Positions 8,192-60,841 of a DNA stretch of 64,000 nt are shown here, piece by piece. The stretch comes from Bacillota bacterium (lineage in GTDB: Bacteria; Bacillota_I; Bacilli_A; RF39; UBA660): NCBI GenBank assembly GCA_015059365.1, contig SVAO01000006.1, positions 3,065 to 67,064 on the forward strand, in the 5' to 3' direction. Position 1 is the stretch's first letter, and each line of letters starts with the position of its first letter. The position numbers and the translations under genes are program-made. The notes beneath the pieces are model-generated. The model saw only the letters and a program-made list of their open reading frames with translations. It made no database searches and was not told the origin of the DNA.

Positions 8192-9979
8192 GTGATGATA
8201 ATGTTAGGAACTATTATAGGTATAGAGGAAAATGTTGTTTTTATTAAAATTAATATTGACCTTAACAAATTTGATTCTTTAATAAATCTTCATGTTATTA
8301 TGGAAAATAATGATAAAAAAATAGTTGGAGAAATTATTGATATTAAGGATGGTGTTGCATCAGTAAATTTATTAGGGGAAATGATTGACAATAAATTTGT
8401 TTTTGGTGTTATTAACAAACCATCTTTCGCATCTACTGTAAAATTAATTTCAAAAGAAAAAATCCCAATGATTATTAGTTTAGATAATTTTAAAGAAAAT
8501 GAGGGACTTTATATAGGCAATAGTCCAATATATGAGGGTGTTCCTATAGGAGTTAATATAAATTCTTTTTTTAGTAATCATTTTGCGATATTTGGTTCTA
8601 CAGGTAGTGGTAAATCTTGTAGTGTAGCTAGGATATTTCAAAATTTATTTGAAAAACAACAATCAATTGCGTATCGTGCTAGTATATTTATTTTTGATGC
8701 ATATGGTGAGTATTATAATGCTTTTAAAGATATAAATAAAAAGGTTCCGGAACTTAGTTTTAAAACATATACAACAAATACTAATTTTTCAGATACAGAA
8801 ATAATTAAAATACCTTTATGGTTATTAGATACTGATGATATAGCAATTCTTTTGGGAGCGGAGAAAACAAGTCAACTTCCAATTATTGAAAAAGCCTTAA
8901 AATTAGTTACAATATTCGGTAGAGAAGAAGATATTGTTATTAAACATAAAAATGATATTATAGCTCGTGCTATATTGGATATATTATCTAGTGGTCGTCC
9001 TCCTGCACAAATTCGTGATCATATTTTTTCGGTTTTGTCTTACTATAATACTAAGAATTTAAATTTAGATACTGAAATATTCCAACCTGGATATACTAGG
9101 TCGTTAAAGCAGTGTTTACTAATAGATGCGACTGGAAAAATTAGAGAAATGGAATTATTAACTACTTTTATTGAAAGTTTTTTAGATGATAATTTAGAAC
9201 TTAATTTACCTGATGGAACGTTTAAGTATTCTTTAACAGATTTAAAAGATGCATTTGATTTTGCACTTATTTCGGAAGGTATATTAAAAAGCGATAAGGT
9301 TTATGATGAGGCTAATATATTAAAAGTTAGATTACATTCTCTTGTTAATAGTAGTGAAGGTAAATATTTTGATGTTTCAGAATATATATCAAGAGACGAA
9401 TATATTAGAAGTTTGATAACTGCTCCAAATGGAAGAAAAGCTCAAATAATTAATTTTAATATAAATTATGTGGATGATAGATTTGCTAAAACTATAACAA
9501 AAATTTATTCGAAATTATTATTTAATTATGCTAAAGATATGGAAAGAAGAGCTTCAATACCTTTTCATATTGTGCTTGAGGAAGCACATCGTTATGTTCA
9601 AAATGATAATGATATAAATGTTTTAGGGTATAATATTTTTGATCGTATTACAAAAGAAGGAAGAAAATATGGTGTTATATTAGGCCTTATTTCACAAAGA
9701 CCAGCTGAACTTTCAGAAACATCGTTATCACAATGCAATAACTTTTTGATATTTAGAATGTTGCACCCTTTAGATGTTGAGTATATTCAAAAAATGGTGC
9801 CTAATATAACTAATGAAATTGTTAAAAGATTACGTATTTTGCAACCTGGAACTTGTATTGGGTTTGGAAATGCATTTAAAGTTCCTGTGTTAATAAAATT
9901 AGATATGCCTGATCCTGCACCATCTAGTAGTAATTGTGATGTTGCTGGTATTTGGTTTGTAAATAAAAAACAAGATTAA
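8192..9979 (+). CDS. HerA-like (DUF87, FtsK/HerA superfamily) P-loop ATPase, orphan
   Basis: N-terminal beta-barrel-like segment. Walker A FGSTGSGKS, Walker B HIVLEEAHRY, C-terminal LISQRPAELSETSLSQCNNFLIFRM typical of HerA. The true start may be the ATG at 8201 after AGGGTGA. Confidence 0.75.
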   Translation: MMIMLGTIIGIEENVVFIKINIDLNKFDSLINLHVIMENNDKKIVGEIIDIKDGVASVNLLGEMIDNKFVFGVINKPSFASTVKLISKEKIPMIISLDNFKENEGLYIGNSPIYEGVPIGVNINSFFSNHFAIFGSTGSGKSCSVARIFQNLFEKQQSIAYRASIFIFDAYGEYYNAFKDINKKVPELSFKTYTTNTNFSDTEIIKIPLWLLDTDDIAILLGAEKTSQLPIIEKALKLVTIFGREEDIVIKHKNDIIARAILDILSSGRPPAQIRDHIFSVLSYYNTKNLNLDTEIFQPGYTRSLKQCLLIDATGKIREMELLTTFIESFLDDNLELNLPDGTFKYSLTDLKDAFDFALISEGILKSDKVYDEANILKVRLHSLVNSSEGKYFDVSEYISRDEYIRSLITAPNGRKAQIINFNINYVDDRFAKTITKIYSKLLFNYAKDMERRASIPFHIVLEEAHRYVQNDNDINVLGYNIFDRITKEGRKYGVILGLISQRPAELSETSLSQCNNFLIFRMLHPLDVEYIQKMVPNITNEIVKRLRILQPGTCIGFGNAFKVPVLIKLDMPDPAPSSSNCDVAGIWFVNKKQD

Positions 9980-10056: not shown

Positions 10057-10497
10057 ATGGAAAAAAGTAAATATAAACAAATAGTAGATAAACATACTCC
10101 TCGGGAAAATAGATTATTTAATGCATTAATTTGTTTTTTTTCGGGTGGTATTATGGGAATTATTGGACAAGGGTTAATAGATTTATATTCTAATATTTTA
10201 GATATTCCTACGAAAGATGCTTCAGTATTTATGATTGTTACTCTTATTTTTATAGGGTGTTTACTTACATGTTTTGGTTGGTTTGATAAAATTGTTAATT
10301 TTTGTAAATGTGGACTTATTGTTCCTATTACAGGATTTGCTCATGCAATGATGAGTGCTGCACTTGAATATCGTAAAGAAGGAATGGTTACAGGGATAGG
10401 AGCAAATATGCTTAAACTTGCTGGTAGTGTCATAATTTTTGGAGTCGTTAGTGCCTGGTTTTTTGGCCTAATTAGATTATTTTTGATGGGTGCTTAA
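10057..10497 (+). CDS. spoVAC: stage V sporulation protein AC
   Basis: About 146-aa four-TM protein with SpoVAC-like NALICFFSGGIMGIIGQ and VPITGFAHAM segments. First gene of a spoVAC-AD-AEb triad. Confidence 0.88.
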   Translation: MEKSKYKQIVDKHTPRENRLFNALICFFSGGIMGIIGQGLIDLYSNILDIPTKDASVFMIVTLIFIGCLLTCFGWFDKIVNFCKCGLIVPITGFAHAMMSAALEYRKEGMVTGIGANMLKLAGSVIIFGVVSAWFFGLIRLFLMGA

Positions 10498-11486
10498 TGA
10501 CATTTAAATATAATAATGTATATTTGAATGAAGCAAGTACTGTAACTGGACCATATGAAGCAAATGGACCATTTAGTAAACTTTACGATAAGAGTTATGA
10601 TGATCTTTATTTTAATACTAAGACATGGGAACAGGCAGAAAGCAAGTTAATTGATGATAGTGTAGATATATTACTTGCTAAAATAGGTAAGACAAAATTT
10701 GATATTGATTTATTTATTTCTGGGGATTTGCTAAATCAAATAACTGCATCTAATTATGCTGCATCACGTTTAAAGATTCCATATATGGGTATTTATAGTG
10801 CTTGTGCAAGTAGTATGGAGGGTTTGATGATTGGTGCAAATATGGTGGATGCAAAACAAGTAAAAAATGTGATTGCGTCTGTTTCATCACATAATAATGG
10901 TGCTGAAAAACAATTTAGATATCCTGTTGAATATGGTGGACCAAAGAGAAAAACAACAACATTTACTACTACTGGAGGAGCTAGTGTATATTTATCTAGT
11001 GAGCAATCTCAAATTAGAATTGAAAGTGGTACGGTTGGAATTGTTGAAGATTTAGGTATAACTGATGTTTACAATATGGGAGCGGTTATGGCCCCAGCTG
11101 CTGCCAGTACAATTTTTAGGCATTTGTCTGATTTGAAAAGAGAAGTTGGATATTATGATTTAATTCTCACTGGTGATTTAGGAATCTGTGGGAAGAAAAT
11201 ATTAAAAGAATATATGAAAGTTGAATATAATATTGAATTAAATAATTATGATGATGCAGCATCTATGATATTTGATATTGAACATGAACCGGTTTATTCT
11301 GGCGGAAGTGGGCCTGCTTGTTTACCTTTAGTTGCATATAGTTATATTTTAGATGAGATGAAAAAAGGGAAGTTAAAACGTGTTTTGTTAGTTGCAACGG
11401 GAGCCTTAATGTCACCAACAACAGTTAATCAAAAAGAAACAATTCCAAGCATTGCACATGCGATTAGTTTGGAGGTATGTGAATGA
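10497..11486 (+). CDS. spoVAD: stage V sporulation protein AD (thiolase/KAS-III-like fold)
   Basis: 329 aa. GIYSACASS active-site-like motif. Position between spoVAC and spoVAEb, with start overlapping the spoVAC stop. Confidence 0.88.
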   Translation: MTFKYNNVYLNEASTVTGPYEANGPFSKLYDKSYDDLYFNTKTWEQAESKLIDDSVDILLAKIGKTKFDIDLFISGDLLNQITASNYAASRLKIPYMGIYSACASSMEGLMIGANMVDAKQVKNVIASVSSHNNGAEKQFRYPVEYGGPKRKTTTFTTTGGASVYLSSEQSQIRIESGTVGIVEDLGITDVYNMGAVMAPAAASTIFRHLSDLKREVGYYDLILTGDLGICGKKILKEYMKVEYNIELNNYDDAASMIFDIEHEPVYSGGSGPACLPLVAYSYILDEMKKGKLKRVLLVATGALMSPTTVNQKETIPSIAHAISLEVCE

Positions 11487-11833
11487 TATATTTAAATGCT
11501 TTTATATTTTGTGGTTTGGTATGTGTCTTAGGACAAATTATTTTGGATAATACGAAACTTACACCTGGGCATGTTACAACGATGTTCGTAGTATTAGGAG
11601 CATTTCTAGATACTTTTAATATTTATGATAAAATTATTCTTTGGGCTGGTGGAGGAGCGTTAGTTCCGATTACTAGTTTTGGGCATTTGCTTATTCATGG
11701 AGCTATGGCGGGTGCTTATGATTATGGGTTTATGGGACTATTTATGGGGATTTTTGATCTTACTGCTTCAGGAATTGCTTCTGCTATTATTTTCTCATTT
11801 GTTTTAAGTTTAATTTTTAAGCCTAGGGATTAG
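11483..11833 (+). CDS. spoVAEB: stage V sporulation protein AE (SpoVAEb)
   Basis: 116-aa membrane protein paralogous to SpoVAC (VPITSFGHLL). ATGA overlap with spoVAD. Confidence 0.85.
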   Translation: MIYLNAFIFCGLVCVLGQIILDNTKLTPGHVTTMFVVLGAFLDTFNIYDKIILWAGGGALVPITSFGHLLIHGAMAGAYDYGFMGLFMGIFDLTASGIASAIIFSFVLSLIFKPRD

Positions 11834-19086: not shown

Positions 19087-19983
19087 ATGTATGATATTAT
19101 TATAATAGGTTGTGGCCCAGCAGGAATGACTGCAGCAATATATGCGGCTAGGGCTAATAAAAAAGTATTAATTTTAGAAAAAGAAACGATAGGGGGGCAG
19201 ATGTCATCTGCTCCTCTAATCGAAAATTATCCTGGATATAAAAATATTAGTGGTAGTGAACTTGCAACTAATATGTTTGACCAAATGATAGATTTAGGGG
19301 TTGATTTTGAACTTGAAGAGGTAAATGAAATCATTGGTGGGCCTTTAAAGAAGGTGGTTACAGATGACAATATTTATGAAACCAAAAGTGTAATCATCAC
19401 AACCGGTTCTAAATACCGTAAACTTGGATTAGAAAATGAAGATAATTTAATTGGTAAGGGAATTCATTTTTGTACTTCTTGTGATGGAATATTTTTTAAA
19501 GATAAGATTGTTGCAATAATTGGTGGTGGTAATAGTGCGGTTATTAATGCTTTAACCATGTCGGATATTTGTACTAAAGTATATATTATTCAAAATTTAG
19601 ATAAGCTAACTGCGGAAGATATTTTAATCGATAAGTTAAAACAGAAAGAAAATGTTGAAATTATTACTGGTGCCTGTGTTAAACAAATAATCGGTGATGA
19701 TAATTTAGATTCTGTCGTTGTTGAAACAAATGGCAAAGAAAATAAAATAAAGTTAGATGGGATGTTTATTTCTATTGGCTTAACTCCTCAAAGTGAAATA
19801 GTTAAAGATATTTTAAAAGTTAATAAATATGGATATATAGAATCAAATAATTGTGTAACAGATTTGGAAGGTGTTTTTGTTGCCGGTGATTGTAGAGATA
19901 AGGCGTTTAGGCAAATAACAATTGCAACTAGTGATGGAACAGTTGCTGCAACGGAAGCAATTAATTATTTGAATAATAAATAA
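19087..19983 (+). CDS. trxB: thioredoxin-disulfide reductase
   Basis: FAD GxGxxG IIGCGPAG, redox-active CTSCDG, NADPH site GGGNSA, about 300 aa. Confidence 0.88.
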   Translation: MYDIIIIGCGPAGMTAAIYAARANKKVLILEKETIGGQMSSAPLIENYPGYKNISGSELATNMFDQMIDLGVDFELEEVNEIIGGPLKKVVTDDNIYETKSVIITTGSKYRKLGLENEDNLIGKGIHFCTSCDGIFFKDKIVAIIGGGNSAVINALTMSDICTKVYIIQNLDKLTAEDILIDKLKQKENVEIITGACVKQIIGDDNLDSVVVETNGKENKIKLDGMFISIGLTPQSEIVKDILKVNKYGYIESNNCVTDLEGVFVAGDCRDKAFRQITIATSDGTVAATEAINYLNNK

Positions 19984-20014
19984 TTTTAATATACAAATAA
20001 TTTACAGTGTGGGA

Positions 20015-20043
20015 TTGACATTTTGTATCTAAAAAGTTATTAT
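20015..20043 (+). promoter_or_regulatory. sigma-A type promoter of family gene A1
   Basis: TTGACA (20015-20020), 17 nt, TATTAT (20038-20043). Confidence 0.5.
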
Positions 20044-20068
20044 TACAATAGGAGAGAGGAAGTGTTTG

Positions 20069-20681
20069 AATGCAAAGAACAAGAAATAGACAAATAATGA
20101 CTATTGCACTTATCATGGCATCAATAGTAGGACTAGGGGTAGGATTTGCAGCATTCTCTAGTTCATTAAGCATTAAATCTGGAGTATCAGTAAGCCCTGA
20201 TTCATCAACATTTAGTGTTAAGTTTTCATCAAGTGCAACAGCACAAGAAAGGAATCCCATAGAAGCAGTAACAAATCCTGAAACATTGGTCGCAAAAGAT
20301 GGGGAAATAGATGCAGTAGATGCAACTACAATAAGTAATCTATCAGTTGAATTCACCCAACCAGATCAAACAGCAACATATACGTTTTATGCAAGAAATA
20401 CAGGAGCATATTTAGCGTATTTAAATATGATTCAAGTTGGTGAAAAAACATGTACACCTGGGGATGGTGCAGATGCAGATTTAGTTGCAGCAGCATGTGA
20501 AGCGTTGAGCGTTAGTGTAAGTGTTGGAACAAATAGTGTTACAAAAACTGAAAGCATTACAAATCATACATTAGCAGCAGGAAGTAGTGAAGAGGTAATT
20601 GTAACTTTAGAATATGCGAAAGATGGAGCAAGAGCAGATGGAGCGTTTACAGTGTCATTTGGTGATATTTCATTAACATAT
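20069..20681 (+). repeat. 613-bp dispersed direct repeat (copy 1), 5' two-thirds of A1
   Basis: Aligns without gaps to 36773-37385. By eye there are roughly 15-20 mismatches, about 97 percent identity. Similarity collapses right after ...ggtgatatttcattaacatat. Confidence 0.85.
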
Positions 20682-21224
20682 TCATCATCAACTTCTAATA
20701 GTGGGAATACTATTATAGAAGGAGAATTTGATACATTTTTTAAAACATGTACGTTATTGGATGGTGGAATATATGAAGTTGGTTCAAAATATTTGTGTCA
20801 ATTTGATAATGCTGCAGTAGAATTTTATTTGTTGAGTCATGAGAAACAAGAAGATGAGTATGGCTATGGTCATAGTACAGTTTTGATAGCAGCAGAAAAT
20901 GTTGTGGATAATATCTCTTATTATGATGCAATGTCATTGTTGGATGAAACAAATGGCGATAGTAGTATACAGGGAATGTGGGGAGTTAATGGCGGAGCAG
21001 AGAGTCATCACATATACATGCCAACACTTGATGATCTTAATAGCGTAAGTACTAATGGATATGTACCATCATGGGCTCAAGGATATTATTGGTTAGAAAG
21101 TGAAAATGAAATTGTAGATGTAGTACGTGATGCAGAAATATTTGGAAGTGCGGCTTATAGGGATGAAACTGATTATGGTGTTCGACCAGTACTAAATTTA
21201 ACTTACTGGTGGTCTATTGCATAA
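20070..21224 (+). CDS. secreted/surface protein A1: TasA/SipW-type-like signal peptide, beta-rich module, conserved Cys-containing C-terminal module (YWL...GVRPV)
   Basis: N-terminus MQRTRNRQIMTIALIMASIVGLGVGFAAFSSS resembles SipW-cognate leaders (GGTxAAF[ND]D). The middle resembles the camelysin/TasA-like YTFYARNTGAYLAYL. The C-terminus shares CTLLxGxxYEVGSKYLCQF, EFY, PSWxxGYYW and GVRPVLNL with the pilin-like neighbours. Confidence 0.8.
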   Translation: MQRTRNRQIMTIALIMASIVGLGVGFAAFSSSLSIKSGVSVSPDSSTFSVKFSSSATAQERNPIEAVTNPETLVAKDGEIDAVDATTISNLSVEFTQPDQTATYTFYARNTGAYLAYLNMIQVGEKTCTPGDGADADLVAAACEALSVSVSVGTNSVTKTESITNHTLAAGSSEEVIVTLEYAKDGARADGAFTVSFGDISLTYSSSTSNSGNTIIEGEFDTFFKTCTLLDGGIYEVGSKYLCQFDNAAVEFYLLSHEKQEDEYGYGHSTVLIAAENVVDNISYYDAMSLLDETNGDSSIQGMWGVNGGAESHHIYMPTLDDLNSVSTNGYVPSWAQGYYWLESENEIVDVVRDAEIFGSAAYRDETDYGVRPVLNLTYWWSIA

Positions 21225-21229
21225 TTGTT

Positions 21230-21253
21230 AAGGGTATAAAATATACCCTTTTT
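21230..21253 (+). terminator. Rho-independent terminator after A1
   Basis: AAGGGTAT-aaaa-ATACCCTT followed by TTT. Confidence 0.65.
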
Positions 21254-21316
21254 GTGTGTGAAAAATTATTATTAATAGGTATTAAAGATAGTGGACAAAC
21301 TGTTTACAAACGTATA

Positions 21317-21345
21317 TTGACAAATTATTAATAAAGATATATTCT
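21317..21345 (+). promoter_or_regulatory. sigma-A type promoter of pilin-like gene B1 (copy of the family promoter)
   Basis: TTGACA-aattattaataaagata-TATTCT. The 70 nt up to the ATG are identical to the regions upstream of 38089 and 39182. Confidence 0.55.
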
Positions 21346-21367
21346 TAAGGAGAATAGAGGTGTAGAA

Positions 21368-22264
21368 ATGAGAAAAAATGGATTTACTTTAATAGAATTA
21401 CTTGCAGTAATAGTAGTACTTGCAATTATTACGTTAATCGCAACGCCGGTAGTGATGGATGTAATAAAAAATGTTGAGAAAGCCGCATCTGAAAGAAGTG
21501 CAGAAAATTACGTATCGTCAGTAGAAAGATTAATTATTACAGAAAGATTAGATGGTAATATAATTCAAGATGGAACATATGAAATTAATAGTGATGGAAA
21601 TCTAGTAATAAACGGAGTTGTTAAAGTTATTGAAATGAGTGGTAAAAAACCAAGTGGTGGAACAATTACTATATTAGATGGTGTAGTATCTAAAGAAAGT
21701 ACTACTACTATTACAGTTGGTAATTATGATGTTACATATGACGCTAATGGAAGATTGGTAGCAACAGAAAGTGAAGGAATTGTAATTACTGCAGCTGAAA
21801 ATCAATTCTATTGTACATTATTAAATGGTTCATCATTTGCCGTTGGTTCAAAATATTTATGTCAATTTAATAGCCAAGCAGTAGAATTTTATGTATTAGA
21901 GGCTATAGAAGCTCCAGAAGAAGATAAAGATTTGTATTCTTATACTATGAAATTAATTCCTGCACAAGATGCAAAATTCGAAGGTCTAACATTAGAACTT
22001 GATGGAATGGATTATGATGCATACGTTATAAGTGTTGCCGGTGAGTGGGGTGTTGAATATAGTCAATTAATGACACCAACATATGAACAATTATATGCAA
22101 TAAACAATTCAGAAAACTTACCGTCATGGCTTCATGGTGATTATTGGGTAAATTCGCAAAGTGGTGATGTTTATATTGTTGACAATAATTCGTTAGTATC
22201 AAATGCAGAATTAGATGGATATCATGGAATTAGACCTGTTCTTACATTTAATGTGCAACCATAG
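21368..22264 (+). CDS. modular type IV pilin-like protein B1 (prepilin leader plus shared C-terminal module)
   Basis: Class III signal MRKNG|FTLIELLAVIVVLAIITLIA (Glu at +5). C-terminal FYCTLLNGSSFAVGSKYLCQF...EFYVL...PTYEQLYAINNSENLPSWLHGDYWV...GIRPVLTF. Confidence 0.85.
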   Translation: MRKNGFTLIELLAVIVVLAIITLIATPVVMDVIKNVEKAASERSAENYVSSVERLIITERLDGNIIQDGTYEINSDGNLVINGVVKVIEMSGKKPSGGTITILDGVVSKESTTTITVGNYDVTYDANGRLVATESEGIVITAAENQFYCTLLNGSSFAVGSKYLCQFNSQAVEFYVLEAIEAPEEDKDLYSYTMKLIPAQDAKFEGLTLELDGMDYDAYVISVAGEWGVEYSQLMTPTYEQLYAINNSENLPSWLHGDYWVNSQSGDVYIVDNNSLVSNAELDGYHGIRPVLTFNVQP

Positions 22265-22646: not shown

Positions 22647-23117
22647 ATGGTAGAGAACAAACTTGGGATACGTAATTATAGTAAATTACAAATGATAGAA
22701 AAAGAACTTGTTTCAACAAAAATAAAACTATTAGATGAACAAGTAACTTTTAATATGGAAACTTTAAATTTGGAATTTTTAATTAAATTACATTATTTTT
22801 TATTTGGAGATATTTATTTTCAAAAAGATTTAGAGATTAGAACGATTACTGATTTGGAATATAAAAAATTAAATAAACTATTTGAACTATTAGTTCAAAT
22901 GGGGTTAGAAGGAATTGATATAAAATATAAATCATTAGAAATCATATTAAAAAAAATATGGGAATTGCAGTTATTTGGTGATGGTAATACTAGAACTGTT
23001 TTGGCTTTTTTAAAATTATATATTAAATATTATAATTTACCTTTAGAATTTGATTTTGATGTTGATATTAAATCTAGCGAAAAGATATTTGTTTTGAGAA
23101 AGTGTCAACAAAAATAA
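22647..23117 (+). CDS. Fic/DOC-family-like protein with degenerate active-site motif
   Basis: LHYFLFGDIYF resembles the Fic IHxxLFxxIYxWAG segment. The motif position reads QLFGDGNTRTVL instead of HxFx(D/E)GNGRxxR. Confidence 0.55.
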   Translation: MVENKLGIRNYSKLQMIEKELVSTKIKLLDEQVTFNMETLNLEFLIKLHYFLFGDIYFQKDLEIRTITDLEYKKLNKLFELLVQMGLEGIDIKYKSLEIILKKIWELQLFGDGNTRTVLAFLKLYIKYYNLPLEFDFDVDIKSSEKIFVLRKCQQK

Positions 23118-35566: not shown

Positions 35567-36643
35567 ATGTTTGGTGGATTAGAAATGGATCAATTAGCTA
35601 AAATAAAGGTAATTGGAGTAGGTGGCGGAGGAAATAACGCTGTTAATAGAATGATTGAATCAGGAGTTAAGGGAGTAGATTTTATTGTAGCTAATACAGA
35701 CTTACAAGTATTAAATAGTTCTAAAGCTCCAGTAAAAATTCAAATAGGAACAGAACTAACTAATGGATTGGGTGCAGGTGCAAATCCTCAAATAGGACGA
35801 GAAGCTGCATTAGAATCAAAGGCTGAAATAGAGGCTGCATTAGAAGGTGCAGACATGGTTTTTGTTACTTGTGGAATGGGTGGAGGAACTGGAACTGGGG
35901 CAGCTCCAGTAGTAGCATCAATTGCACAAGAAATGGGAGCTCTTACTGTAGGTATTGTTACAAAACCTTTCTCATTTGAAGGTAAAAAACGTATGGAACA
36001 AGCTTTAAACGGATTAGATGAATTAAAGAAGCATGTGGATACTTTAATTGTAATTCCTAATGATCGTTTAAGAGAAATTATTGATAAATCGACTCCATTA
36101 TTGGATTCATTTAAAGAAGTTGATAATGTTTTACGTCGTGGTGTTCAATCTATTTCAGATTTGATTGCGGTTGCAGGGTTAATTAACTTAGACTTTGCCG
36201 ATGTTAAAGCAGTAATGGAAAAACGTGGAAATGCTTTAATTGGAATAGGTATTGGAGTTGGAGAAAATAGAGCTGCCGAAGCTGCTAAACAAGCTGTAGA
36301 AAGTCCACTTCTTGAAACAAGTATAAGTGGTGCTACAGATGCGATTATCAATGTTACTGGTGGTTCTAATTTAACACTTTTTGAAGTAGAAGAGGCTGCA
36401 GAAGTTATTAGAACAAGTGCTAATACTGATATTAATACTATCTTTGGAGCGGTAATTAATGAAAATTTAAATGATGAAATCATTGTAACAGTTATTGCAA
36501 CAGGTTTTGAAGATAAAACAGATCCACTTTATCATTCATATTCAACAACAACTCGTGAAGAATTAAGAAGAAATGATGATTCTTCAGAAGGTTCAGATGA
36601 TGAAGCATCAATTCCATCTTTCTTAAGAAAAAGAGGATTTTAA
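35567..36643 (+). CDS. ftsZ: cell division protein FtsZ
   Basis: [13 protein letters not shown], tubulin signature [12 protein letters not shown]-terminal [10 protein letters not shown] peptide. Confidence 0.97.
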
Positions 36644-36708: not shown

Positions 36709-36772
36709 AAAATTATGATAGTACAAGCAATAACAATACTACATTGTATTATAATTAGAAAGAGGTTATAAA

Positions 36773-37385
36773 AATGCAAAGAACAAGAAATAGACAAATA
36801 ATGACTATTGCACTTATCATGGCAGCAATAGTAGGACTAGGGGTAGGATTTGCAGCATTCTCTAGTTCATTAAGCATTAAATCTGGAGTATCAGTAAGTC
36901 CTGATTCATCAACATTTAGTGTTAAATTTTCATCAAGTGCAACAGCACAAGAAAGGAATCCCATAGAAGCAGTAACAAATCCTGAAACATTGGTCGCAAA
37001 AGATGGGGAAATAGATGCAGTAGATGCAACCACAATAGGTAATCTATCAGTTGAATTCACCCAACCAGATCAAACAGCAACATATACTTTTTATGCAAGA
37101 AATACAGGAGCATATTTAGCATATTTAAATATGATTCAAGTTGGTGAAAAAACATGTACACCTGGGGAAGGTACAGATGCAGATTTAGTTGCAGCAGCAT
37201 GTGACGCGTTGAGCGTTAGTGTAAGTGTTGGAACAAATACTGTTACAGAAACTGAAAGCATTACAAATCATACATTAGCAGCAGGAAGTAGTGAAGAGGT
37301 AATTGTAACTTTAGAATATGCGAAAGATGGAGCAAGAGCAGATGGACCATTTACAGTAACATTTGGTGATATTTCATTAACATAT
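36773..37385 (+). repeat. 613-bp dispersed direct repeat (copy 2), 5' two-thirds of A2
   Basis: Gap-free alignment with 20069-20681. Confidence 0.85.
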
Positions 37386-37865
37386 GCAACAACTGCTGAA
37401 TCCCAAGATATTCCAGAAGTTTATATTGGATGGGATCAATCATGCAAATTAATAAGTGGCACAGTATATGAAGTCGGTTCTAAATATACATGTAAGTTTA
37501 TGGGCGATTTTGATAACGAAACAGAAGTAGATTTCTACATGTTGCAAAGTGATCTTGATGCAGGTATGGTTTATTTGATTACTGTAGAAACGTTTGGTTC
37601 TGGTATGACTCAATATGAAGCACAAATAAGTGCGGAAGCTGATTTTTTGATGGAATATAGACTTAATGGGGAAAGTTTTTCATTACCTACATATGGTCAA
37701 TTATACGCAGTTGATAATTCTGAAACATTACCATCATGGCTTCATGGTGAGTATTGGTTAGCGTCAGAGGGAGGGGAAGATGTTTATTCGGTTTTTGGAG
37801 ATACTATAAGTAGTGACCATTCATCGGCAGGAGCTCGATTTGTTTATAATTTAAGTACAATATAA
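36774..37865 (+). CDS. secreted/surface protein A2 (paralog of A1; same leader and beta module, different C-terminal module subtype)
   Basis: The first 204 residues differ from A1 at about 9 positions. C-terminus GWDQSCKLISGTVYEVGSKYTCKF...LPTYGQLYAVDNSETLPSWLHGEYWLAS...GARFVYNLS matches the adjacent B2. Confidence 0.8.
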   Translation: MQRTRNRQIMTIALIMAAIVGLGVGFAAFSSSLSIKSGVSVSPDSSTFSVKFSSSATAQERNPIEAVTNPETLVAKDGEIDAVDATTIGNLSVEFTQPDQTATYTFYARNTGAYLAYLNMIQVGEKTCTPGEGTDADLVAAACDALSVSVSVGTNTVTETESITNHTLAAGSSEEVIVTLEYAKDGARADGPFTVTFGDISLTYATTAESQDIPEVYIGWDQSCKLISGTVYEVGSKYTCKFMGDFDNETEVDFYMLQSDLDAGMVYLITVETFGSGMTQYEAQISAEADFLMEYRLNGESFSLPTYGQLYAVDNSETLPSWLHGEYWLASEGGEDVYSVFGDTISSDHSSAGARFVYNLSTI

Positions 37866-37961
37866 AAGATGATAAACGCTTGTAATAGTATAATTATCTA
37901 AATGATTTTGAATAGAAGTTTTATATAAAATACTTAATTTTATGAATATATTAATAAAAAA

Positions 37962-37988
37962 CGACACAAAAATGCGTGTCGTTTTTTT
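37962..37988 (+). terminator. hairpin terminator, family element copy 1
   Basis: CGACAC-aaaaatgc-GTGTCG followed by TTTTTTT. Confidence 0.7.
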
Positions 37989-38037
37989 GTTGAAAAATGA
38001 ATCATAAATAGGTATACAAGCGGTTTACAAAATTGTA

Positions 38038-38066
38038 TTGACAAATTATTAATAAAGATATATTCT
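38038..38066 (+). promoter_or_regulatory. sigma-A type promoter of B2
   Basis: TTGACA, 17 nt, TATTCT. Same sequence as at 21317 and 39131. Confidence 0.55.
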
Positions 38067-38088
38067 TAAGGAGAATAGAGGTGTAGAA

Positions 38089-38952
38089 ATGAGAAAAAAT
38101 GGATTTACTTTAATAGAATTACTTGCAGTAATAGTAGTGCTTGCGGTAATAGCGTTAATTGCAATACCAGTAGTAATGGATGCAATAAGTAATGCTGAGA
38201 AAGGTGCTGCTGAAAGAAGTGCGGAAAATTATGCATCAGCGGTTGAAAGATTAATTGCTACAGAAAGATTAGATGGTAATATAATTCAAGATGGAACATA
38301 TGAAATTAATAGTGATGGAAATCTAGTAATAAACGGAGTTGTTAAAGTTATTGAAATGAGTGGTAAAAAACCAAATGGTGGAACAATTACTGTATCAAAC
38401 GGTGTGATAGCAAAAGAAAGTACCACTACTATTACAGTTGGTAATTATGACGTTACATACAACGCAGAAGGGAAGACTGTTATTAACGAAAAAGAAACAG
38501 TTGTTCAAACTATTGGTTATGATCAATCATGTAAATTAATAAGCGGAAAATTATATGAGGTTGGTTCTAAATATACATGTAAGTTTATAGGTAATAATGA
38601 AACTGAAATAGAATTAGATTTTTATTTTTTGGAAGATGATTATGAGTTTGGAGCGGTAAATTTGATTTCTGCAGATACTTTTGGTGCAGATACTATGGAG
38701 TTCTACGAAGCATATGTTTATGCAGGAAGTGATTTTGCGGTAGAACATGGTATTATTGGTAGTTTTTCATTACCTACATATGCCCAATTATATGCGGTTA
38801 ACAAATCTGAAACTATACCTTCGTGGCTTTATGGGAATTATTGGTTAGCGTCAGATGGAGGGGTAGATGTTTATTCGGTTTTTGGGGATACAATAATTGT
38901 TGAAGCTGAATCAGCAGGAGTACGGGTTGTTTATAACTTAAGTTTAGTATAA
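38089..38952 (+). CDS. modular type IV pilin-like protein B2
   Basis: MRKNG|FTLIELLAVIVVLAVIALIA. C-terminal GYDQSCKLISGKLYEVGSKYTCKF...LPTYAQLYAVNKSETIPSWLYGNYWLAS...GVRVVYNLS. Confidence 0.85.
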   Translation: MRKNGFTLIELLAVIVVLAVIALIAIPVVMDAISNAEKGAAERSAENYASAVERLIATERLDGNIIQDGTYEINSDGNLVINGVVKVIEMSGKKPNGGTITVSNGVIAKESTTTITVGNYDVTYNAEGKTVINEKETVVQTIGYDQSCKLISGKLYEVGSKYTCKFIGNNETEIELDFYFLEDDYEFGAVNLISADTFGADTMEFYEAYVYAGSDFAVEHGIIGSFSLPTYAQLYAVNKSETIPSWLYGNYWLASDGGVDVYSVFGDTIIVEAESAGVRVVYNLSLV

Positions 38953-39053
38953 AAGATGATAAATTATCAGTGTTTGTAATAACTGAAATATATTAGAAAG
39001 TCTAAATAGTTTTTATAATAAAATGTTTGGTTTTATGAAAATATAACACGAAA

Positions 39054-39081
39054 CGACACAAAAATGCGTGTCGTTTTTTTT
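39054..39081 (+). terminator. hairpin terminator, family element copy 2
   Basis: CGACAC-aaaaatgc-GTGTCG followed by TTTTTTTT. Confidence 0.7.
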
Positions 39082-39130
39082 GTTGAAAAATGAATCATAA
39101 ATAGGTATACAAGCGGTTTACAAAATTGTA

Positions 39131-39159
39131 TTGACAAATTATTAATAAAGATATATTCT
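39131..39159 (+). promoter_or_regulatory. sigma-A type promoter of B3
   Basis: TTGACA, 17 nt, TATTCT. Confidence 0.55.
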
Positions 39160-39181
39160 TAAGGAGAATAGAGGTGTAGAA

Positions 39182-40084
39182 ATGAGAAAAAATGGATTTA
39201 CTTTAATAGAATTACTTGCAGTAATAGTAGTGCTTGCGGTAATAGTGTTAATTGCAATACCAGTAGTAATGGATGTAATAAGTAATGCTGAGAAAGGTGC
39301 TGCTGAAAGAAGTGCGGAAAATTATGCATCAGCAGTTGAAAGATTAATTGCTACAGAGAGATTAGATGGTAATATAATTGAAACTGGAACATATGAAATT
39401 AATAGTGATGGAAATTTAGTAATAAATGGAGTTGTTAAGGTTGTTGAGATAAATGGTAAAAAACCAACTGGTGGAACAATTACTATTTCTAATGGTGAAG
39501 TATTGAAAGAAACCACAATAATAATTGTGGGGAATTATACAATGTCATGTGACAATAATGGAAAATTTGTAGCAGAAGAAAAGAAACAAATAATTGTTGA
39601 TAATACATTTGGTGTTAAATGTACATTGTTGAGTGGTAAATTATATGAAGTTGGTTCGAAATATCTGTGTGATAGGAATGGACGTTCAGAACAATTTTAT
39701 ATTATAAATAGCATTGAAGCTCCAGAAGAAGACAAAGAGTTTTATGATTATAATTTAACAATTATGTCTGCAGAGAATTTAAATAATGGACAAGAAGTAG
39801 ATGGGTCAGAAACATATAGCGTGGTATTTGATTTAGCGCTAGCATGGTTTGAAGACAGTGCTGATTATTATGCAATATTACCTACATATGAACAATTGTA
39901 TGCAATTAATAATTCTGAAACATTACCATCTTGGCTTTCTGGAAATTATTGGCTTGATATTAAACAATCTGATGAGTATTATCAAGAATATATTGTAGAA
40001 AATGGTGTTATAAAGGAAAATAATGATTACATTTTAACAGGAGTACGCGCTATTATAAATTTAAGTTTTTATAAAGAAGGATAA
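39182..40084 (+). CDS. modular type IV pilin-like protein B3
   Basis: MRKNG|FTLIELLAVIVVLAVIVLIA. C-terminal KCTLLSGKLYEVGSKYLCD...IEAPEEDKEFYDY...LPTYEQLYAINNSETLPSWLSGNYWL...GVRAIINLS. The EAPEEDK insert is shared with B1. Confidence 0.85.
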   Translation: MRKNGFTLIELLAVIVVLAVIVLIAIPVVMDVISNAEKGAAERSAENYASAVERLIATERLDGNIIETGTYEINSDGNLVINGVVKVVEINGKKPTGGTITISNGEVLKETTIIIVGNYTMSCDNNGKFVAEEKKQIIVDNTFGVKCTLLSGKLYEVGSKYLCDRNGRSEQFYIINSIEAPEEDKEFYDYNLTIMSAENLNNGQEVDGSETYSVVFDLALAWFEDSADYYAILPTYEQLYAINNSETLPSWLSGNYWLDIKQSDEYYQEYIVENGVIKENNDYILTGVRAIINLSFYKEG

Positions 40085-40159
40085 GACATATTTATAAAAA
40101 ACGGTGCTTAATATAATTACTTAAATATGAAATAAAATATATTTTAGTTTAACATAAAG

Positions 40160-40187
40160 CGACACAAAAATACGTGTCGTTTTTTTA
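40160..40187 (+). terminator. hairpin terminator, family element copy 3, abutting the spoIIGA promoter
   Basis: CGACAC-aaaaatac-GTGTCG followed by a T-run that runs into TATAAT at 40186-40191. Confidence 0.6.
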
Positions 40188-40191
40188 TAAT
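40186..40191 (+). promoter_or_regulatory. -10 element (TATAAT) of the spoIIGA-sigE operon; no recognisable -35
   Basis: TATAAT lies 15 nt upstream of the spoIIGA ATG region. The -35 position falls inside the hairpin (CACAAA). This fits an activator-dependent promoter, as for Spo0A-dependent spoIIG in B. subtilis. Confidence 0.4.
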
Positions 40192-40206
40192 GTTTTTGGT
40201 GATGAT

Positions 40207-40983
40207 ATGAAAATATATGTAGACCTCGTTTTGCTTTTAAATTTTGCATTTGATTTTATATTATTATTATCTGTCTCTATTCTTTTAAGAAGGAAATCTG
40301 ATGTTAATCGTATTTTAATAGGTGCTTTTGTAGGAAGCCTTAGTATATTATTTTTGTTTATTGAAGTAAATTCAGTTCAGCTTTTTCTTTTTAAGTTGAT
40401 TATTAGTATTTTAATGATTTTAGTTTCATTTGGATTTGTAAATTTAAAATATTTTTTTAAAAATATTGGTTATTTTTATATGTCTAGTTTTGTATTAGGT
40501 GGATTTTTATATTTTTTAAATGTAGAATTTTCTTATAAACAAGAAGGGTTAATATTTTTTCATAAGGGTCTTAGTATAAATTTTATATTTTTAATCATAT
40601 TTTCACCAATTATAATATATATTTATGTGAAACAAGGATTAAGGCTTAAAAATAATTATAGTAAATATCATAAAGTAAGGATAAATTGTGGTGAAGAGGA
40701 ATTTGAATGTGTAGGTTATGTCGATACAGGAAACAAAGTTATTGATCCTTATTTTAAAAGGAGGATTATATTTGTAGATAAACAATTAACTTTAAATAAT
40801 AATTTTGTAATTGTTCCATATCAAACTATTGATAATGAAGGGTTTATAAAATGTTTTAAAATAGATAAGTTAGAGATAGATAATAAAGAAGTAAGTGATA
40901 AGTTTTTAGTTAGTTTTATAGGCAAAAAAATAAGCATTGATGGGGTAGACTGTATATTACCAGAGATAGGAGAGATAAAGTGA
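40207..40983 (+). CDS. spoIIGA: sigma-E processing peptidase SpoIIGA
   Basis: MKIYVDLVLLLNFAFDFILLLSV matches the SpoIIGA N-terminus (MKIYLDVIWLLNF...). Five TM helices and aspartic-protease-like GYVDTGN. Directly upstream of sigE. The ORF-track start at 40174 lies inside the hairpin. Confidence 0.9.
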   Translation: MKIYVDLVLLLNFAFDFILLLSVSILLRRKSDVNRILIGAFVGSLSILFLFIEVNSVQLFLFKLIISILMILVSFGFVNLKYFFKNIGYFYMSSFVLGGFLYFLNVEFSYKQEGLIFFHKGLSINFIFLIIFSPIIIYIYVKQGLRLKNNYSKYHKVRINCGEEEFECVGYVDTGNKVIDPYFKRRIIFVDKQLTLNNNFVIVPYQTIDNEGFIKCFKIDKLEIDNKEVSDKFLVSFIGKKISIDGVDCILPEIGEIK

Positions 40984-41672
40984 TAAAGAAAATAATTAAT
41001 TGTATTGTTCGTATTTTTAGTGGAGAAGAATCAATTTTTTTTGTGGGTAGTGCAGACAAGTTACCAGAACCACTTTCTAAAGAAGATGAAATATATTATG
41101 TTTCTAAAGCTAGTGATGGAGATGAGGCTGCACGTTCAAAACTTATCGAACATAATTTACGTTTGGTTGTATTTTTATCTAAAAAATATGAAAATACAGG
41201 AGTTGATTTAGAAGATTTGGTAAGCATTGGAACAATTGGATTAATTAAGGGAGTAAATACTTATAAGTTAGATAAAAATATAAAACTTGCAACTTACGCA
41301 TCTCGTTGTATAGATAATGAAATATTGATGTTTTTAAGAAAAAATAAAAAAAGACGTGGTGAGGTAAGTTTTGAGGATAGTTTAAGTTACGATTCTGAAG
41401 GTAATGAACTTCATTTAGAAGATATTTTAGGAACAGAATCTAATATTGTAACTAAAGGTATAGAAGAAGAAAATGATAAAAAAGAGTTATATTGTGAAAT
41501 TGAAAAATTAAGTAAAAGGGATAAGGAGATAATGGTCTTAAGGTATGGTTTATTTAATCATGAAGAGATGACACAAAAGGATGTTGCATTAAAACTAGGA
41601 ATTAGTCAATCGTATATATCGCGTATTGAAAAAAAAGTTATAAGAAGACTTAAATCGCTTACGAAGTATTAA
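40980..41672 (+). CDS. sigE: RNA polymerase sporulation sigma factor pro-sigma-E
   Basis: GTG start overlapping the spoIIGA stop. LPEPLSKEDE, LIEHNLRLVVF, ENTGVDLEDLVSIGTIGLIKGVNTY, KLATYASRCIDNEILMFLR and ISQSYISRIEKK are nearly collinear with B. subtilis SigE. Confidence 0.93.
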   Translation: MIKKIINCIVRIFSGEESIFFVGSADKLPEPLSKEDEIYYVSKASDGDEAARSKLIEHNLRLVVFLSKKYENTGVDLEDLVSIGTIGLIKGVNTYKLDKNIKLATYASRCIDNEILMFLRKNKKRRGEVSFEDSLSYDSEGNELHLEDILGTESNIVTKGIEEENDKKELYCEIEKLSKRDKEIMVLRYGLFNHEEMTQKDVALKLGISQSYISRIEKKVIRRLKSLTKY

Positions 41673-50600: not shown

Positions 50601-50948
50601 TTGTTAGATATTAATTATGAATTTAGAAAAGGTATACTGTTTATTAGATTAACAGGGGTTTTAAATAAGAATACTGTTAGTAAGTTGCAAAATGAAGTAA
50701 CAGATATGATTAAAGATAATGGTATTAGAAATGTTGTATTTAATGTCGAAGAGTTAAATGTTATTGATATCAAGGGAATTAATAGTTTACTAGATAATTA
50801 TGAACTATGTCATAATAATAATGGGATTAGTTTATTATGTGGCTTAAAAAATTCTTTGGTTCGTCATCGTATTGAAAATAGTAGACTATTAAGATATATG
50901 AATGAAACTAGTGATGAATTAAGTGCTTTTAATATTATAAATCTATAA
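50601..50948 (+). CDS. spoIIAA: STAS-domain anti-anti-sigma factor (SpoIIAA-like) lacking the phosphorylatable serine
   Basis: TTG start after GAGGTGA. Gap-free alignment to B. subtilis SpoIIAA (ILFIRLTGVLNKNT / VLCIRLTGELDHHT). The DSSG phosphosite reads DIKG here. Confidence 0.7.
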   Translation: MLDINYEFRKGILFIRLTGVLNKNTVSKLQNEVTDMIKDNGIRNVVFNVEELNVIDIKGINSLLDNYELCHNNNGISLLCGLKNSLVRHRIENSRLLRYMNETSDELSAFNIINL

Positions 50949-50957
50949 GGAGAGAAT

Positions 50958-51623
50958 ATGAACGAAGAATTGTCTAAGTTGATTATTGATAATGAAAACT
51001 TAATTTATAGAATAACGCATTTTTTTAATAATTATTCAAACAAGGAAGATCTTTTTCAAGTAGGTTGTATTGGTTTAATAAAAGCTTACAATAATTATAG
51101 GGATGATTATAATACTAAATTTACGACTTATGCATATCCATATATTTTAGGTGAAATCAAGAAATATATTAGAGAAGATAAAGGGATTAAAGTAAGTCGC
51201 GATATCACTAAGTTAAATTTAAAAATTGAAAGAGCATATTTGGTTTTATCTCAAAAAATAATGAGAGAACCAAGCATTAAAGAAGTATCAGAATATTTAG
51301 GTATAGATGAATATTATATTAGTGAGGCTCTATGTGCTAATAACGCTTTACAAAGTTTAGATGAGCCAATCATTAATAATGGTAAAGAATTAACTTTATA
51401 TGATACAGTTTCAAAAGTTGAATCCATGGATATTGATACATTAATAGCGTTAAAACGTGAATTATCACTATTAAATAGTAAAGATTACCAAATAATTAGT
51501 GAACATTATTTACAAGATAAAACCCAAAGTGAAATAGCAGAAAGCCTAGGAATAAATCAAGTACAAGTATCACGTCGAGAACAAAAGATTTTAAAAAAAT
51601 TAAAAGACAAACTAGTTGCTTAA
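50958..51623 (+). CDS. sigF: sporulation sigma factor of the SigF/SigG/SigB group (best candidate for sigma-F)
   Basis: DLFQVGCIGLIKAYNNY, FTTYAYPYILGEIKKYIRED, KVSRD, QSEIAESLGINQVQVSRREQKILKKLK. Lies immediately after the STAS gene. Confidence 0.75.
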   Translation: MNEELSKLIIDNENLIYRITHFFNNYSNKEDLFQVGCIGLIKAYNNYRDDYNTKFTTYAYPYILGEIKKYIREDKGIKVSRDITKLNLKIERAYLVLSQKIMREPSIKEVSEYLGIDEYYISEALCANNALQSLDEPIINNGKELTLYDTVSKVESMDIDTLIALKRELSLLNSKDYQIISEHYLQDKTQSEIAESLGINQVQVSRREQKILKKLKDKLVA

Positions 51624-58171: not shown

Positions 58172-58180
58172 GAGGTAAAA

Positions 58181-59782: not shown

Positions 59783-60841
59783 ATGAAAAAGATAGGATAT
59801 TTAATAATTGGATTAGTAATTTTAATGCCATTTAAAATAAATGCCGCTAGTGCTAGTTTAAGCATTAGTTGTCCAAACACTGCTTATCCTGGTATACAGT
59901 AAGTTGTAAAATAAGTGCCAATACTAGTGGTGATATTAATGGAATTAGTGGCAATTATAGTTTATCAGAAGGGTTAGTTTACAAGGAGTTTGCTACTTCA
60001 AGTAGCGTCTTGTTTAATATTGTTCAAACAACGAACAAAGGATTTGTATTAGGTAATACTTCTGGTTTACCAGCAAAATTCACACTTGGAACATTAAAAG
60101 TTACCATTCCTGGTAATGCAACTTCCAATACAGTCTACAGCGTAACTATTAAAAATATAGGGGCTAGTGATCTTGATTATGATAGTGTTTCGATAAGTAA
60201 TGTAACAGATTCTATTAAAGTAATTAGTAAGGAAGTTAATAATTCAACTAAACCAGGAAATAATACTCAAAAGAAAAGTAGTAATGCAAATTTAAGTGAA
60301 ATTAATTTAAATGGTAACAAAATAGAAATTATACCAACTAAAACTGAGTATTCAATCAATGTTAAATATGAGACAGAAATTCTTGAAACAACATATAAAG
60401 TAGAAGATAAGAAAGCAAGTGCTAAAGTAAGTGGTGACAGCAGAAGCTGGAACTAAAAAAATATATAATATTAAGGTTAATAGATTACAAGAAAATGAAA
60501 AATTATCTAACAATAATTATTTAAGTATTTTAGAAATAGATGGTTATGATATTAATTTTAATAAAGAAACGTTAGAATATACTATAAGTATAAAAGATGA
60601 AGATAGTTTAAAAATTACTACCAAAACGGAAGGAAACGCTAAGGTAAGTATAGAAGGTAATAATGATTTAAAGAATGGTAGTATCATAAAAATAACTGTA
60701 ACAGCAGAAGATGATACTACAAGAAATTATATAATTAATATTAAAAGTAATAGAAATAATATTTTAATAATTACTTTATTAGGTATAGTTCTAATAAGTG
60801 TTATTGTTGTAGTAATGTTTGTATTTAAAAAGAACAAATGA
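59783..60841 (+). pseudogene. surface protein gene (cohesin-like N-domain, two cadherin-like beta-sandwich repeats, C-terminal TM) broken by two frame changes
   Basis: Signal-peptide ORF 59783-59902 stops at TAA. The sense continues in another frame (…TVSCKISANTSGDINGISG…) to 60456, then returns to the first frame at ~60431 (VVTAEAGTKKIYNIKVNRL...). Frames mod 3 run 2,1,2. Confidence 0.6.

Follow-up and report, generated by a model that had tools for sequence, protein, structure and literature searches.

Two neighbouring genes with one C-terminal module

Two neighbouring genes, here called A1 and B1, lie in a stretch of 64,000 nucleotides from an uncultured Bacillota bacterium (lineage RF39, UBA660; contig SVAO01000006.1, positions 3,065 to 67,064; hereafter the window). 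They encode proteins that differ in their N-terminal halves and carry the same C-terminal module. The original prediction for this DNA had described A1 as a TasA-like fibre protein with a SipW-type leader and B1 as a type IV prepilin, with one cargo module grafted onto both. Both predicted open reading frames (ORFs) are present, and the pair is organized as follows (aa, amino acids; a slash within a sequence marks a known or proposed cleavage site).

20015..20043, + strand: promoter-like site of A1, TTGACA-17-TATTAT, 11/12
about 20050-20062, + strand: ribosome-binding site (RBS) of A1, AGGAGAGAGG
20070-21224, + strand: A1 ORF, 384 aa; starts MQRTRNRQIMTIALIMASIVGLGVGFAAFSSS..., then YTFYARNTGAYLAYL
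20070..20150, + strand: A1 leader, aa 1-27; basic N-region and hydrophobic helix, ending in the invariant G-F-A
20151..20690, + strand: A1 scaffold module, aa 28-207; extended segment, then acidic beta-sandwich
20739..21224, + strand: A1 C-terminal cargo module, aa 224-384, to the stop codon
21230..21250, + strand: terminator-like hairpin and T-run after A1
21317..21345, + strand: promoter-like site of B1, TTGACA-17-TATTCT
21368-22264, + strand: B1 ORF, 298 aa; leader MRKNG/FTLIELL
21368..21772, + strand: B1 type IV pilin module, aa 1-135; leader MRKNG, then FTLIELLAVIVVLAII... with Glu5
21803..22264, + strand: B1 C-terminal cargo module, aa 146-298

The similarity of the C-terminal parts is significant: BLASTP aligns residues 194-375 of A1 with residues 114-292 of B1 at 32 % identity over 194 columns (E=2e-24). 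Outside this module no alignment of A1 with B1 is returned. All motifs that had been listed for the module were found as well (C-x-L-L-x-G...VGSKYLCQF, VEFY, PT.xxL, PSWxxGxYW and G[VI]RPVL). Their core positions are mostly invariant in the five module copies of the window, the exceptions being VEFY, the Q after the second Cys and the final P-V-L. In A1 the cargo consists of a Cys-clamped hairpin (C227...C243) and a following alpha/beta part with the GVRPVL end; in B1 the small globular pilin domain that precedes the cargo ends in VGNYDVTY. Position 20015, at which the original prediction began, is the -35 box of the A1 promoter-like site. Given the hairpin at 21230-21250 and the separate promoter-like site of B1, the two genes look like separate transcription units, and both signals between the genes led us to reject co-transcription of A and B.

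A second gene set and the mosaic structure of the genes

A tblastn search of the window with A1 and B1 revealed a second set, A2-B2-B3 (36774-40084), which is absent from the original prediction. The block is inserted between ftsZ (35567-36643) and spoIIGA-sigE (40174-41672).

36774-37865, + strand: A2, 363 aa; C module from about 37434
38038..38066, + strand: promoter-like site of B2; hexamers and spacing as for B1 and B3
38089-38952, + strand: B2, modular type IV pilin, 287 aa; C module from about 38521
39050..39077, + strand: terminator-like hairpin after B2
39131..39159, + strand: promoter-like site of B3
39182-40084, + strand: B3, modular type IV pilin, 300 aa; C module from about 39611
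40156..40183, + strand: terminator-like hairpin after B3, just before spoIIGA

The hairpins after B2 and B3 are nearly identical, and the tandem duplication from B2 to B3 therefore took in the 3' flank. No terminator-like hairpin was detected after A2 or B1. Antisense ORFs lie opposite the A scaffold at 19961-20356 (- strand, 131 aa) and 36755-37060 (- strand, 101 aa); they are near-identical shadows of the repeated DNA and unlikely to be genes.

Comparison of the sets reveals a mosaic structure. A1 and A2 are 97-100 % identical in about 600 nt of scaffold DNA, and this identity falls abruptly to about 40-50 % at the module boundary. The B genes follow the same pattern: each has TTGACA-17-TATTCT, the promoter and the 5' untranslated region are kept among B1, B2 and B3, and the first ~100 nt around the start are 95-100 % identical. 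The modules, in contrast, are only 29-63 % identical and do not cluster by scaffold.

Two additional A-type genes, A3 and A4, were found elsewhere in the same organism. A3 (P0003, 376 aa) is followed by a gene for a 546-aa pilin (locus L002) and thus forms a third A-B pair; the two proteins have no common module, and the pilin carries DUF7743. A4 (P0004, 290 aa) is an A-type protein with a type I dockerin in place of the module.

L084 10001-10873: A4, solitary and flanked by glmS and secE-nusG, ~18 kb upstream of the window

With A3 included, bootstrap trees of the C modules (A1C, B1C and so on) join A2C with B2C (63 % aa identity, bootstrap 100 %) and A3C with B1C (59 %, bootstrap 99 %). The pairs A1C-B1C (41 %) and A1C-A2C (36 %) were not recovered, and a clade of all A or all B modules never was. 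A3C and B1C come from different contigs; codon-level alignments show patches of 86-97 % nt identity between these two, and of 71-91 % between A2C and B2C. In both pairs the nt identity begins just upstream of the first Cys. The 'G[DN]xx[VL]TY' strand that ends both scaffolds was considered as recombination junction and rejected, as its nt identity equals background. From the mixed trees and the nt patches we conclude that cassettes crossed scaffold types at least twice, and fairly recently; the pattern points to recombination or gene conversion as the exchange route.

Since the genome is metagenome-assembled, scaffold modules that are 97-100 % identical could have caused mis-assembly, and an artefact of assembly or annotation, or a set of decaying pseudogenes, has to be weighed at this point. 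All five ORFs are intact, each with a promoter-like site, and an RBS can be seen by eye for A1 and B1. Identical proteins occur on 10 to 28 independent contigs from several sources, and the module is conserved across hundreds of proteins. We consider such an artefact highly improbable.

Combinations of this kind have precedents. FimH and PapG are two-domain chaperone-usher adhesins made of a pilin and a lectin domain, and the pilE/pilS system of Neisseria exchanges pilin cassettes. With the former the A and B proteins share the layout of a pilin domain joined to a (here predicted) lectin-like domain, although in the reverse order to FimH. With the latter they share a conserved 5' scaffold, variable 3' cassettes and sharp recombination boundaries. 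Unlike in pilE/pilS, there is no silent cassette among the A and B copies, each of which is complete and has its promoter, and the exchange crosses two unrelated filament families.

The B proteins are modular type IV pilins

The class III prepilin signal ascribed to B1 is confirmed by PF07963 (E=7.5e-7; 28.9 bits, cutoff 21.2) and TIGR02532 (E=1.7e-7). Its leader is short and basic and ends in Gly, followed by FTLIE with Glu at +5; the hydrophobic stretch behind the cleavage site (alpha1-N), as read from the sequence, is FTLIELLAVIVVLAIITLIATPVV. We found the 135-aa pilin module of B1 in 1804 database proteins, nearly all of them flagged PF07963, where it is combined with this C module or with other C-terminal parts. 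The N-terminal part of B1 has a global identity of 79 % to that of B2 and 74 % to that of B3. Thus, B1, B2 and B3 are modular type IV pilins, and because the pilin module is joined by a short linker to an independent module they are modular in the sense of PilB and PilC from Streptococcus sanguinis. Together with the BLASTP homology and the mixing of modules across scaffolds, this pilin identity bears out the central claim that one cargo module is carried by two unrelated scaffolds.

The S. sanguinis proteins PilB (vWA module) and PilC (lectin module) have, like B1 to B3, a leader with Glu5, a small pilin module, a linker and a grafted module (PMC8179133, PMC9934059), and by analogy the B proteins are probably displayed at the pilus tip and adhesive. 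There are four differences. The B cargo is a DUF6273/Lcl_C-like domain, and it is also found on a non-pilin scaffold; the B genes are monocistronic and lie away from pilus machinery; and the genomes have numerous paralogues in which the pilin module is conserved and the cargo varies. In relatives (L086, L087) the B-type pilin genes are single and scattered among housekeeping genes.

The cargo module is probably a distant relative of DUF6273 and Lcl_C

The module is Cys-clamped, acidic, aromatic-rich and about 150 aa long. Its likeness to DUF6273, which had been suspected from the C-terminal motifs, holds for homologues of the module and not for the copies of the window themselves. Thirteen of 65 module homologues match DUF6273 and seven match Lcl_C; the full-length relatives P0149 (23.8 bits) and P0201 (25.7 bits) exceed the DUF6273 (PF19789) cutoff of 23.5 on their ...YWTS...GVRPVI end, and DUF6273 is clearly matched (E=1.1e-12) in the A-type protein P0028. 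None of the window copies reaches the threshold of DUF6273, Lcl_C (PF07603) or any other Pfam family. Judged by these profile matches, the module is probably a distant relative of DUF6273/Lcl_C.

The C-terminal domain of Legionella Lcl is an example of a binding domain of the Lcl_C/C-type-lectin-like kind. DUF6273 has been modelled as C-type-lectin-like and occurs in phage receptor-binding proteins and in targets of diversity-generating retroelements (DGRs) (PMC10743442). As in the DUF6273/Lcl_C (DUF1566) domains of tentaclins and DGR targets (PMC10743442), the module has a ...YW[ST]...G[VI]RP[VI] end, a distal position on surface or tail-fibre proteins and a fast divergence. In contrast to them, the window modules have an extra N-terminal Cys-clamped beta-hairpin subdomain (C.LL.G....VGSKY.C). 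No DGR was noticed in the window, where no dedicated search for one was made, and unlike in DGR targets the diversity of the module arises here from paralogy and recombination. The AlphaFold2 (AF2) model of the B1 module has a pLDDT of 88.6 and a pTM of 0.85. Its best matches in BFVD, all non-significant, include herpesvirus UL45, a 'C-type lectin protein' and DUF1566 proteins. The module is probably C-type-lectin-like and ligand-binding.

A five-sequence profile of the module gave 36 matches among 1.84 billion representatives, a narrow search that lists carrier types and is not fit for counting. The carriers are type IV pilins, big proteins with a SipW-type leader (some with tandem modules), a pseudopilin-like class and proteins with a plain Sec signal. 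The pseudopilin-like carriers (P0350, P0353, P0356, P0368, P0371) represent a third leader class, MKxNNKGFAITSIIYAMLILFLxLxxLILGN, with Ser/Thr in place of Glu at +5. Given this variety of carriers, the module is a promiscuous domain for distal surface display, most likely for binding.

The A scaffold belongs to an undescribed family

The N-terminal module of A1 (207 aa) defines a family that comprises 99 protein clusters and comes from metagenome-assembled genomes (MAGs) labelled as uncultured gut 'Bacilli', 'Mycoplasma sp. CAG', 'Mollicutes' and the like. In roughly one third of these clusters the protein stands alone: it is ~215 aa long and stops at the same point as the A1 module (FGDISLTYSS). 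The remaining clusters have C-terminal cargo, including dockerin, DUF6273 and LRR_5. The leader motif G0/F1/A3/F4 is 100 % conserved in 100 members, and the family consensus reads GFAAFS..L.I.S.A.V.P. In the family alignment the helix end and the next 25 residues are the best-conserved stretch, with G25, F26, A27, A28, F29, S30, L33, I35, S37, A39, V41, P43, F48, V50 and F52 as conserved positions; after the helix, conservation falls on every second position. The AF2 model of A1 (pLDDT 88.5) has a helix at 2-28, a low-confidence extended segment at 29-49 and a beta-sandwich at 50-207 that contains C128 and C143, both of them conserved. Mature A subunits are acidic (pI about 4.3). Tandem arrays of stand-alone A genes without an adjacent signal peptidase gene also occur (L065 3445-11400, with up to ten genes; L079, L066 and L070).

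By analogy with TasA we propose that A1 is cleaved after A27, which would give a mature protein starting AFSSSLSIKSG.... In the family, a cut after G-F-A would leave A-F-S-S with an invariant Phe2 and Ser, Asn or Thr at position 4. Cleavage by a prepilin peptidase at the invariant G/F of the A leader was considered and rejected, because Gly-Phe lies at the outer (C-terminal) end of the helix and neither a Glu5 nor a hydrophobic stretch follows. This topology fits signal peptidase I and not PilD.

The original prediction had placed A1 among the TasA/camelysin-type proteins, and all comparisons made for this assignment were negative. A1 has no Pfam or NCBIfam match at E<=1. In 46 A-family members, TasA/camelysin (Peptidase_M73, NF046066) is not among the best 25 of 36 sub-threshold Pfam families; the best of these are Ig-like domains and not the TasA jelly roll. 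Alignment of A with TasA by hhalign gives a probability of 0.5 %. The A profile finds two matches up to E=10 among the PDB sequences, the best at 0.43, and neither is TasA. For the AF2 model of A1, Foldseek returns 0 PDB matches at E<=1e-3, and TasA is outside the top 50. The assignment of the leader to the SipW-cognate class fails as well, since TIGR04088 does not match the A1 leader, the stand-alone A protein P0018 or the big proteins at E<=10, and TasA as positive control is matched at E=1.2e-9. Finally, AbpX and TasA have a conserved acidic residue at position 4 of the donor strand, and A has none there. Hence, by sequence, leader model and detectable fold A is not a TasA-family protein, and its N-terminal module is an undescribed family of uncultured gut Bacilli that has no Pfam model.

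There are nevertheless parallels with the TasA/TapA/SipW system of B. subtilis. TasA is cut within W-A/A-F (UniProt P54507), and the A signal likewise ends in aromatic-Ala-Ala-Phe (F-A-A-F). A proteins are, like TasA, acidic, secreted and beta-rich, and assembly by donor strands is proposed here for them by analogy. Unlike TasA, they have no sequence or detectable fold homology to it and a leader outside TIGR04088, and A1 bears an extra C-terminal module.

Relatives encode the A family in an operon that resembles filament loci

We mapped 80 genome loci and 80 metagenome loci of the A family with our own ORF and hidden Markov model pipeline. In 55 of the 80 genome loci and in 27 of the 40 metagenome loci of at least 5 kb, an operon was found in the order stand-alone A, signal peptidase I (SPase), DUF5305 protein and big protein. 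The SPase (~375 aa) has a C-terminal domain of the archaeal/ER-type (TIGR02228, E=2.9e-24; 85.7 bits, cutoff 51.85), whose Ser/His motifs SGSM and VHRV stand behind about eight transmembrane (TM) segments. Locus L023 also encodes an ordinary SPase of 192 aa, and the polytopic enzyme is therefore a dedicated extra one. The DUF5305 gene product (PF17231, E=7.6e-14) has two TM segments and was matched 57 times in the first set of loci. The fourth gene encodes a protein of 450-1330 aa whose C-terminus is the same module or a DUF6273 relative; a motif search found the GF[AS]AF..L.I leader in 18 of 43 of these big proteins. A dedicated archaeal/ER-type Ser/His SPase in the same operon is a further likeness to TasA/TapA/SipW. 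In contrast to SipW, the enzyme is polytopic (about 8 TM segments, about 375 aa), and in place of TapA the accessory protein is DUF5305.

A counterpart of this parts list is found in the Tafi and AbpX loci. In archaeal Tafi loci DUF5305 is known as TafG and has been proposed to work together with the signal peptidase TafD; in the AbpX loci of archaea and Bacillota it is the 'SPase I accessory'. TasA-superfamily filaments with donor-strand complementation, minor subunits and tip proteins are encoded by loci of either kind (PMC11821415, PMC12337348, bioRxiv 10.64898/2026.01.04.697558). The peptidase of AbpX loci is polytopic too, and monomer predictions show no structure for the AbpX donor strand (same references). 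Like the Tafi loci (TafA/TafE, TafD, TafG = DUF5305, TafC tip) and the AbpX loci, the A loci encode small subunits of ~150-220 aa that are often in tandem, a dedicated multi-TM SPase I, a two-TM DUF5305 protein and a larger two-domain tip-like protein. The subunits are similarly acidic, and their N-terminal extension is predicted to be unstructured in the monomer model. In other respects they differ: A has no detectable homology to TafA/E, DUF1102 or AbpX, the acidic residue at position 4 of the donor strand is missing, the hosts are uncultured gut Bacilli, and the DUF6273-like cargo of A-type subunits and tip-like proteins is also found on type IV pilins. Consequently, the original description of A1 as a SipW-type fibre protein does not hold at the level of sequence, leader and fold, but it would hold at the level of the system, where we infer it from the operon of the relatives and its match with the Tafi/AbpX layout.

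The same data can be read in a different way. A could be a monomeric surface stalk with an Ig-like beta-sandwich, anchored by its helix or released by SPase, that presents its cargo, and the operon would then be a secretion and processing module. The sub-threshold Pfam matches, which are only Ig-like, the negative TIGR04088 and TasA tests and the lack of a significant structural match to any donor-strand pilin are what one would see for such a stalk, and the range of cargo (dockerin, LRR_5, DUF6273) is wide, as it is for ordinary surface proteins of modular build. The conservation within A is more difficult to reconcile with it. The peak lies in the 25 residues after the helix, in an i/i+2 pattern and in a segment that is unstructured in the AF2 monomer, which is hard to square with a linker and typical of donor strands. 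Moreover, cargo-less members of 215 aa are common, tandem arrays reach ten genes, and the operon parts list matches filament loci. We therefore regard a monomeric stalk as unlikely, and prefer the reading of A as a fibre subunit.

Other features of the window

Sporulation genes in the window comprise spoVAC/D/E-like genes (10057-11833), a spoIIAA-like gene with sigF (50601-51623) and a sigG-like gene (60952-61728), so the host is a spore-former. Many of the 'Mollicutes'-labelled relatives with the A family differ from it in this respect. A HerA/DUF87 ATPase gene (8192-9979) lies in a syntenic block with genes for PBP5, TspO, a HAD protein and YqeH, and is followed by the spoVA genes. In a related MAG (L087 7993-10912) a B-type modular pilin gene directly follows the corresponding HerA/DUF87 ATPase gene. 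Directly 3' of B1, positions 22647-23117 encode a Fic-like protein of 156 aa, with a weak Fic match (E=0.008) below the cutoff.

Further surface proteins are encoded towards the end of the window. The region 57029-59779 encodes a 380-aa secreted protein whose end (PNPDTG, TM segment, KRKNK) is sorting-signal-like, and behind it a 532-aa protein with a C-terminal sortase domain (PF04203, E=7.7e-14), ahead of which stands a long N-terminal extension with a TM segment. Two overlapping ORFs at 59869-60841 (195 and 136 aa) resemble one frameshifted surface protein; in the second one, a Cadherin-like beta-sandwich domain is combined with a TM segment at the C-terminus. The region 59869-60456 had been considered as the source of a cohesin that would pair with the dockerin of A4, and this was rejected, as the region has no cohesin match in Pfam.

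Discussion

The homologous modules, the pilin identity of the B proteins, the mosaic genes, the exchange of modules and the operon of the relatives can be joined in one model, in which A1, A2, B1, B2 and B3 are modular subunits of two surface filament systems. We consider the full model moderately probable. Each protein would consist of an N-terminal scaffold for export and polymerization, a short linker and a C-terminal cargo of ~150 aa. The B proteins would be cut after Gly5 by a prepilin peptidase and, by analogy with other modular pilins, become part of a type IV pilus, most likely of its tip. The A proteins would be cut after the invariant G-F-A by the polytopic archaeal/ER-type SPase I, and the new N-terminus (AFSSSLSIKSGVSVSP) might serve as donor strand that completes a neighbouring subunit, as in TasA, Tafi and AbpX. 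The candidate donor strand in A1 comprises residues 28-49 with the alternating L33/I35/S37/A39/V41. In such a fibre, A1 itself would serve as a minor or tip subunit that carries an adhesin. The scaffold halves would be kept near-identical, and the cargo halves would be diverse cassettes that are moved between A and B genes. With such movement a dynamic type IV pilus and a static fibre would both present the same binding specificity.

Besides the negative comparisons of A with TasA, several observations weigh against this model. Genes for PilB, PilC and PilD are absent from the window and from the ~85 kb of this organism that were covered, as are genes for a signal peptidase and DUF5305; PilC and PilD are present in relatives (L001, L062, L124). 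A search with a SipW-like query returned 1762 matches, and among the best 120 none has the locus-tag prefix of this MAG. The AF2 model of the B1 module has no significant neighbour in PDB (Foldseek, best E=0.47) or in BFVD. Metagenome contigs were also scanned in search of this organism's own signal peptidase: exact DNA patterns for its A genes gave 0 hits, and a protein-based scan found only relatives at <=53 % identity.

A separate question is whether the adjacency of A and B genes reflects a coupling of the two systems. Of the four A genes known from this organism, three directly precede a B gene. Another MAG, from unrelated uncultured Bacilli (L068 9089-11200), has adjacent genes for a 294-aa type IV pilin and a 399-aa A-type protein, and these two proteins have a different C module in common (35 % identity over 221 aa, E=1.8e-33) that has no Pfam match. 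Furthermore, pilC-pilD lies directly upstream of A genes in two other lineages. In Ca. Faecisoma (L001 7111-18255, L005, L089) the order is pilC-pilD-A-A-A-SPase-DUF5305-big protein, with no pilB seen next to pilC-pilD in L001, and on a rumen contig (L124 27-3818) it is pilC-pilD-A+module. Functional coupling of A and B is possible. An undescribed donor-strand fibre (A, polytopic SPase, DUF5305 and a lectin-tipped subunit) might draw on one cassette pool with a type IV pilus, with recombination between both and the adjacency as a sign of real coupling. We put this forward tentatively, as a serious possibility that falls somewhat short of being probable.

Against a coupling stands the fact that most A loci and most B-type pilin genes are non-adjacent. 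A-B adjacency is rare outside this lineage, and immediate adjacency is limited to it and one other genome (L068). Segmental duplication and local gene conversion would account for the adjacency as well. The pairing could then be without functional meaning: a segment was duplicated, a promiscuous cassette settles on any exported scaffold, and the two systems are independent. This would agree with a module that occurs on at least four leader types (pilins, A-type, big proteins with SipW-type leader, KGFAITS class) besides plain Sec proteins. It would also agree with genes that have their own promoters and, in the case of A1, B2 and B3, terminator-like hairpins, with the solitary B-type pilin genes among housekeeping genes of the relatives, and with a third pair, A3 and its 546-aa pilin, that lacks a common module. 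Such independence is more difficult to reconcile with the repeated order of A before B, with the pilin and A-type neighbours in L068 that share a module of their own, and with PilC-PilD directly upstream of A genes in two further lineages. We regard it as a real possibility, if less likely than not. It concerns the coupling only and is compatible with the rest of the two-filament model.

Full-text literature searches yielded no description of a module common to a pilin and a TasA-like scaffold, in line with the original prediction, which knew of no such case. The kinds of system behind the finding are known, namely modular pilins and fibre loci of the TasA/Tafi/AbpX type. New are the subunit family and its operon in gut Bacilli, both undescribed, and the exchange of cassettes across filament families. 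If the model is correct, the A family would represent a branch in gut-commensal bacteria of the SPase/DUF5305 filament class, which has so far been known mainly from archaea and from Bacillus-type TasA. The grafting of modules would then not be limited to one type of filament, and cassettes would circulate among pilins, A-type subunits and tip-like proteins. The recent recombination tracts would provide a concrete mechanism for a rapid diversification of adhesion in uncultured gut Firmicutes, and the repertoire of cassettes would amount to a list of candidate glycan-binding or host-binding domains.

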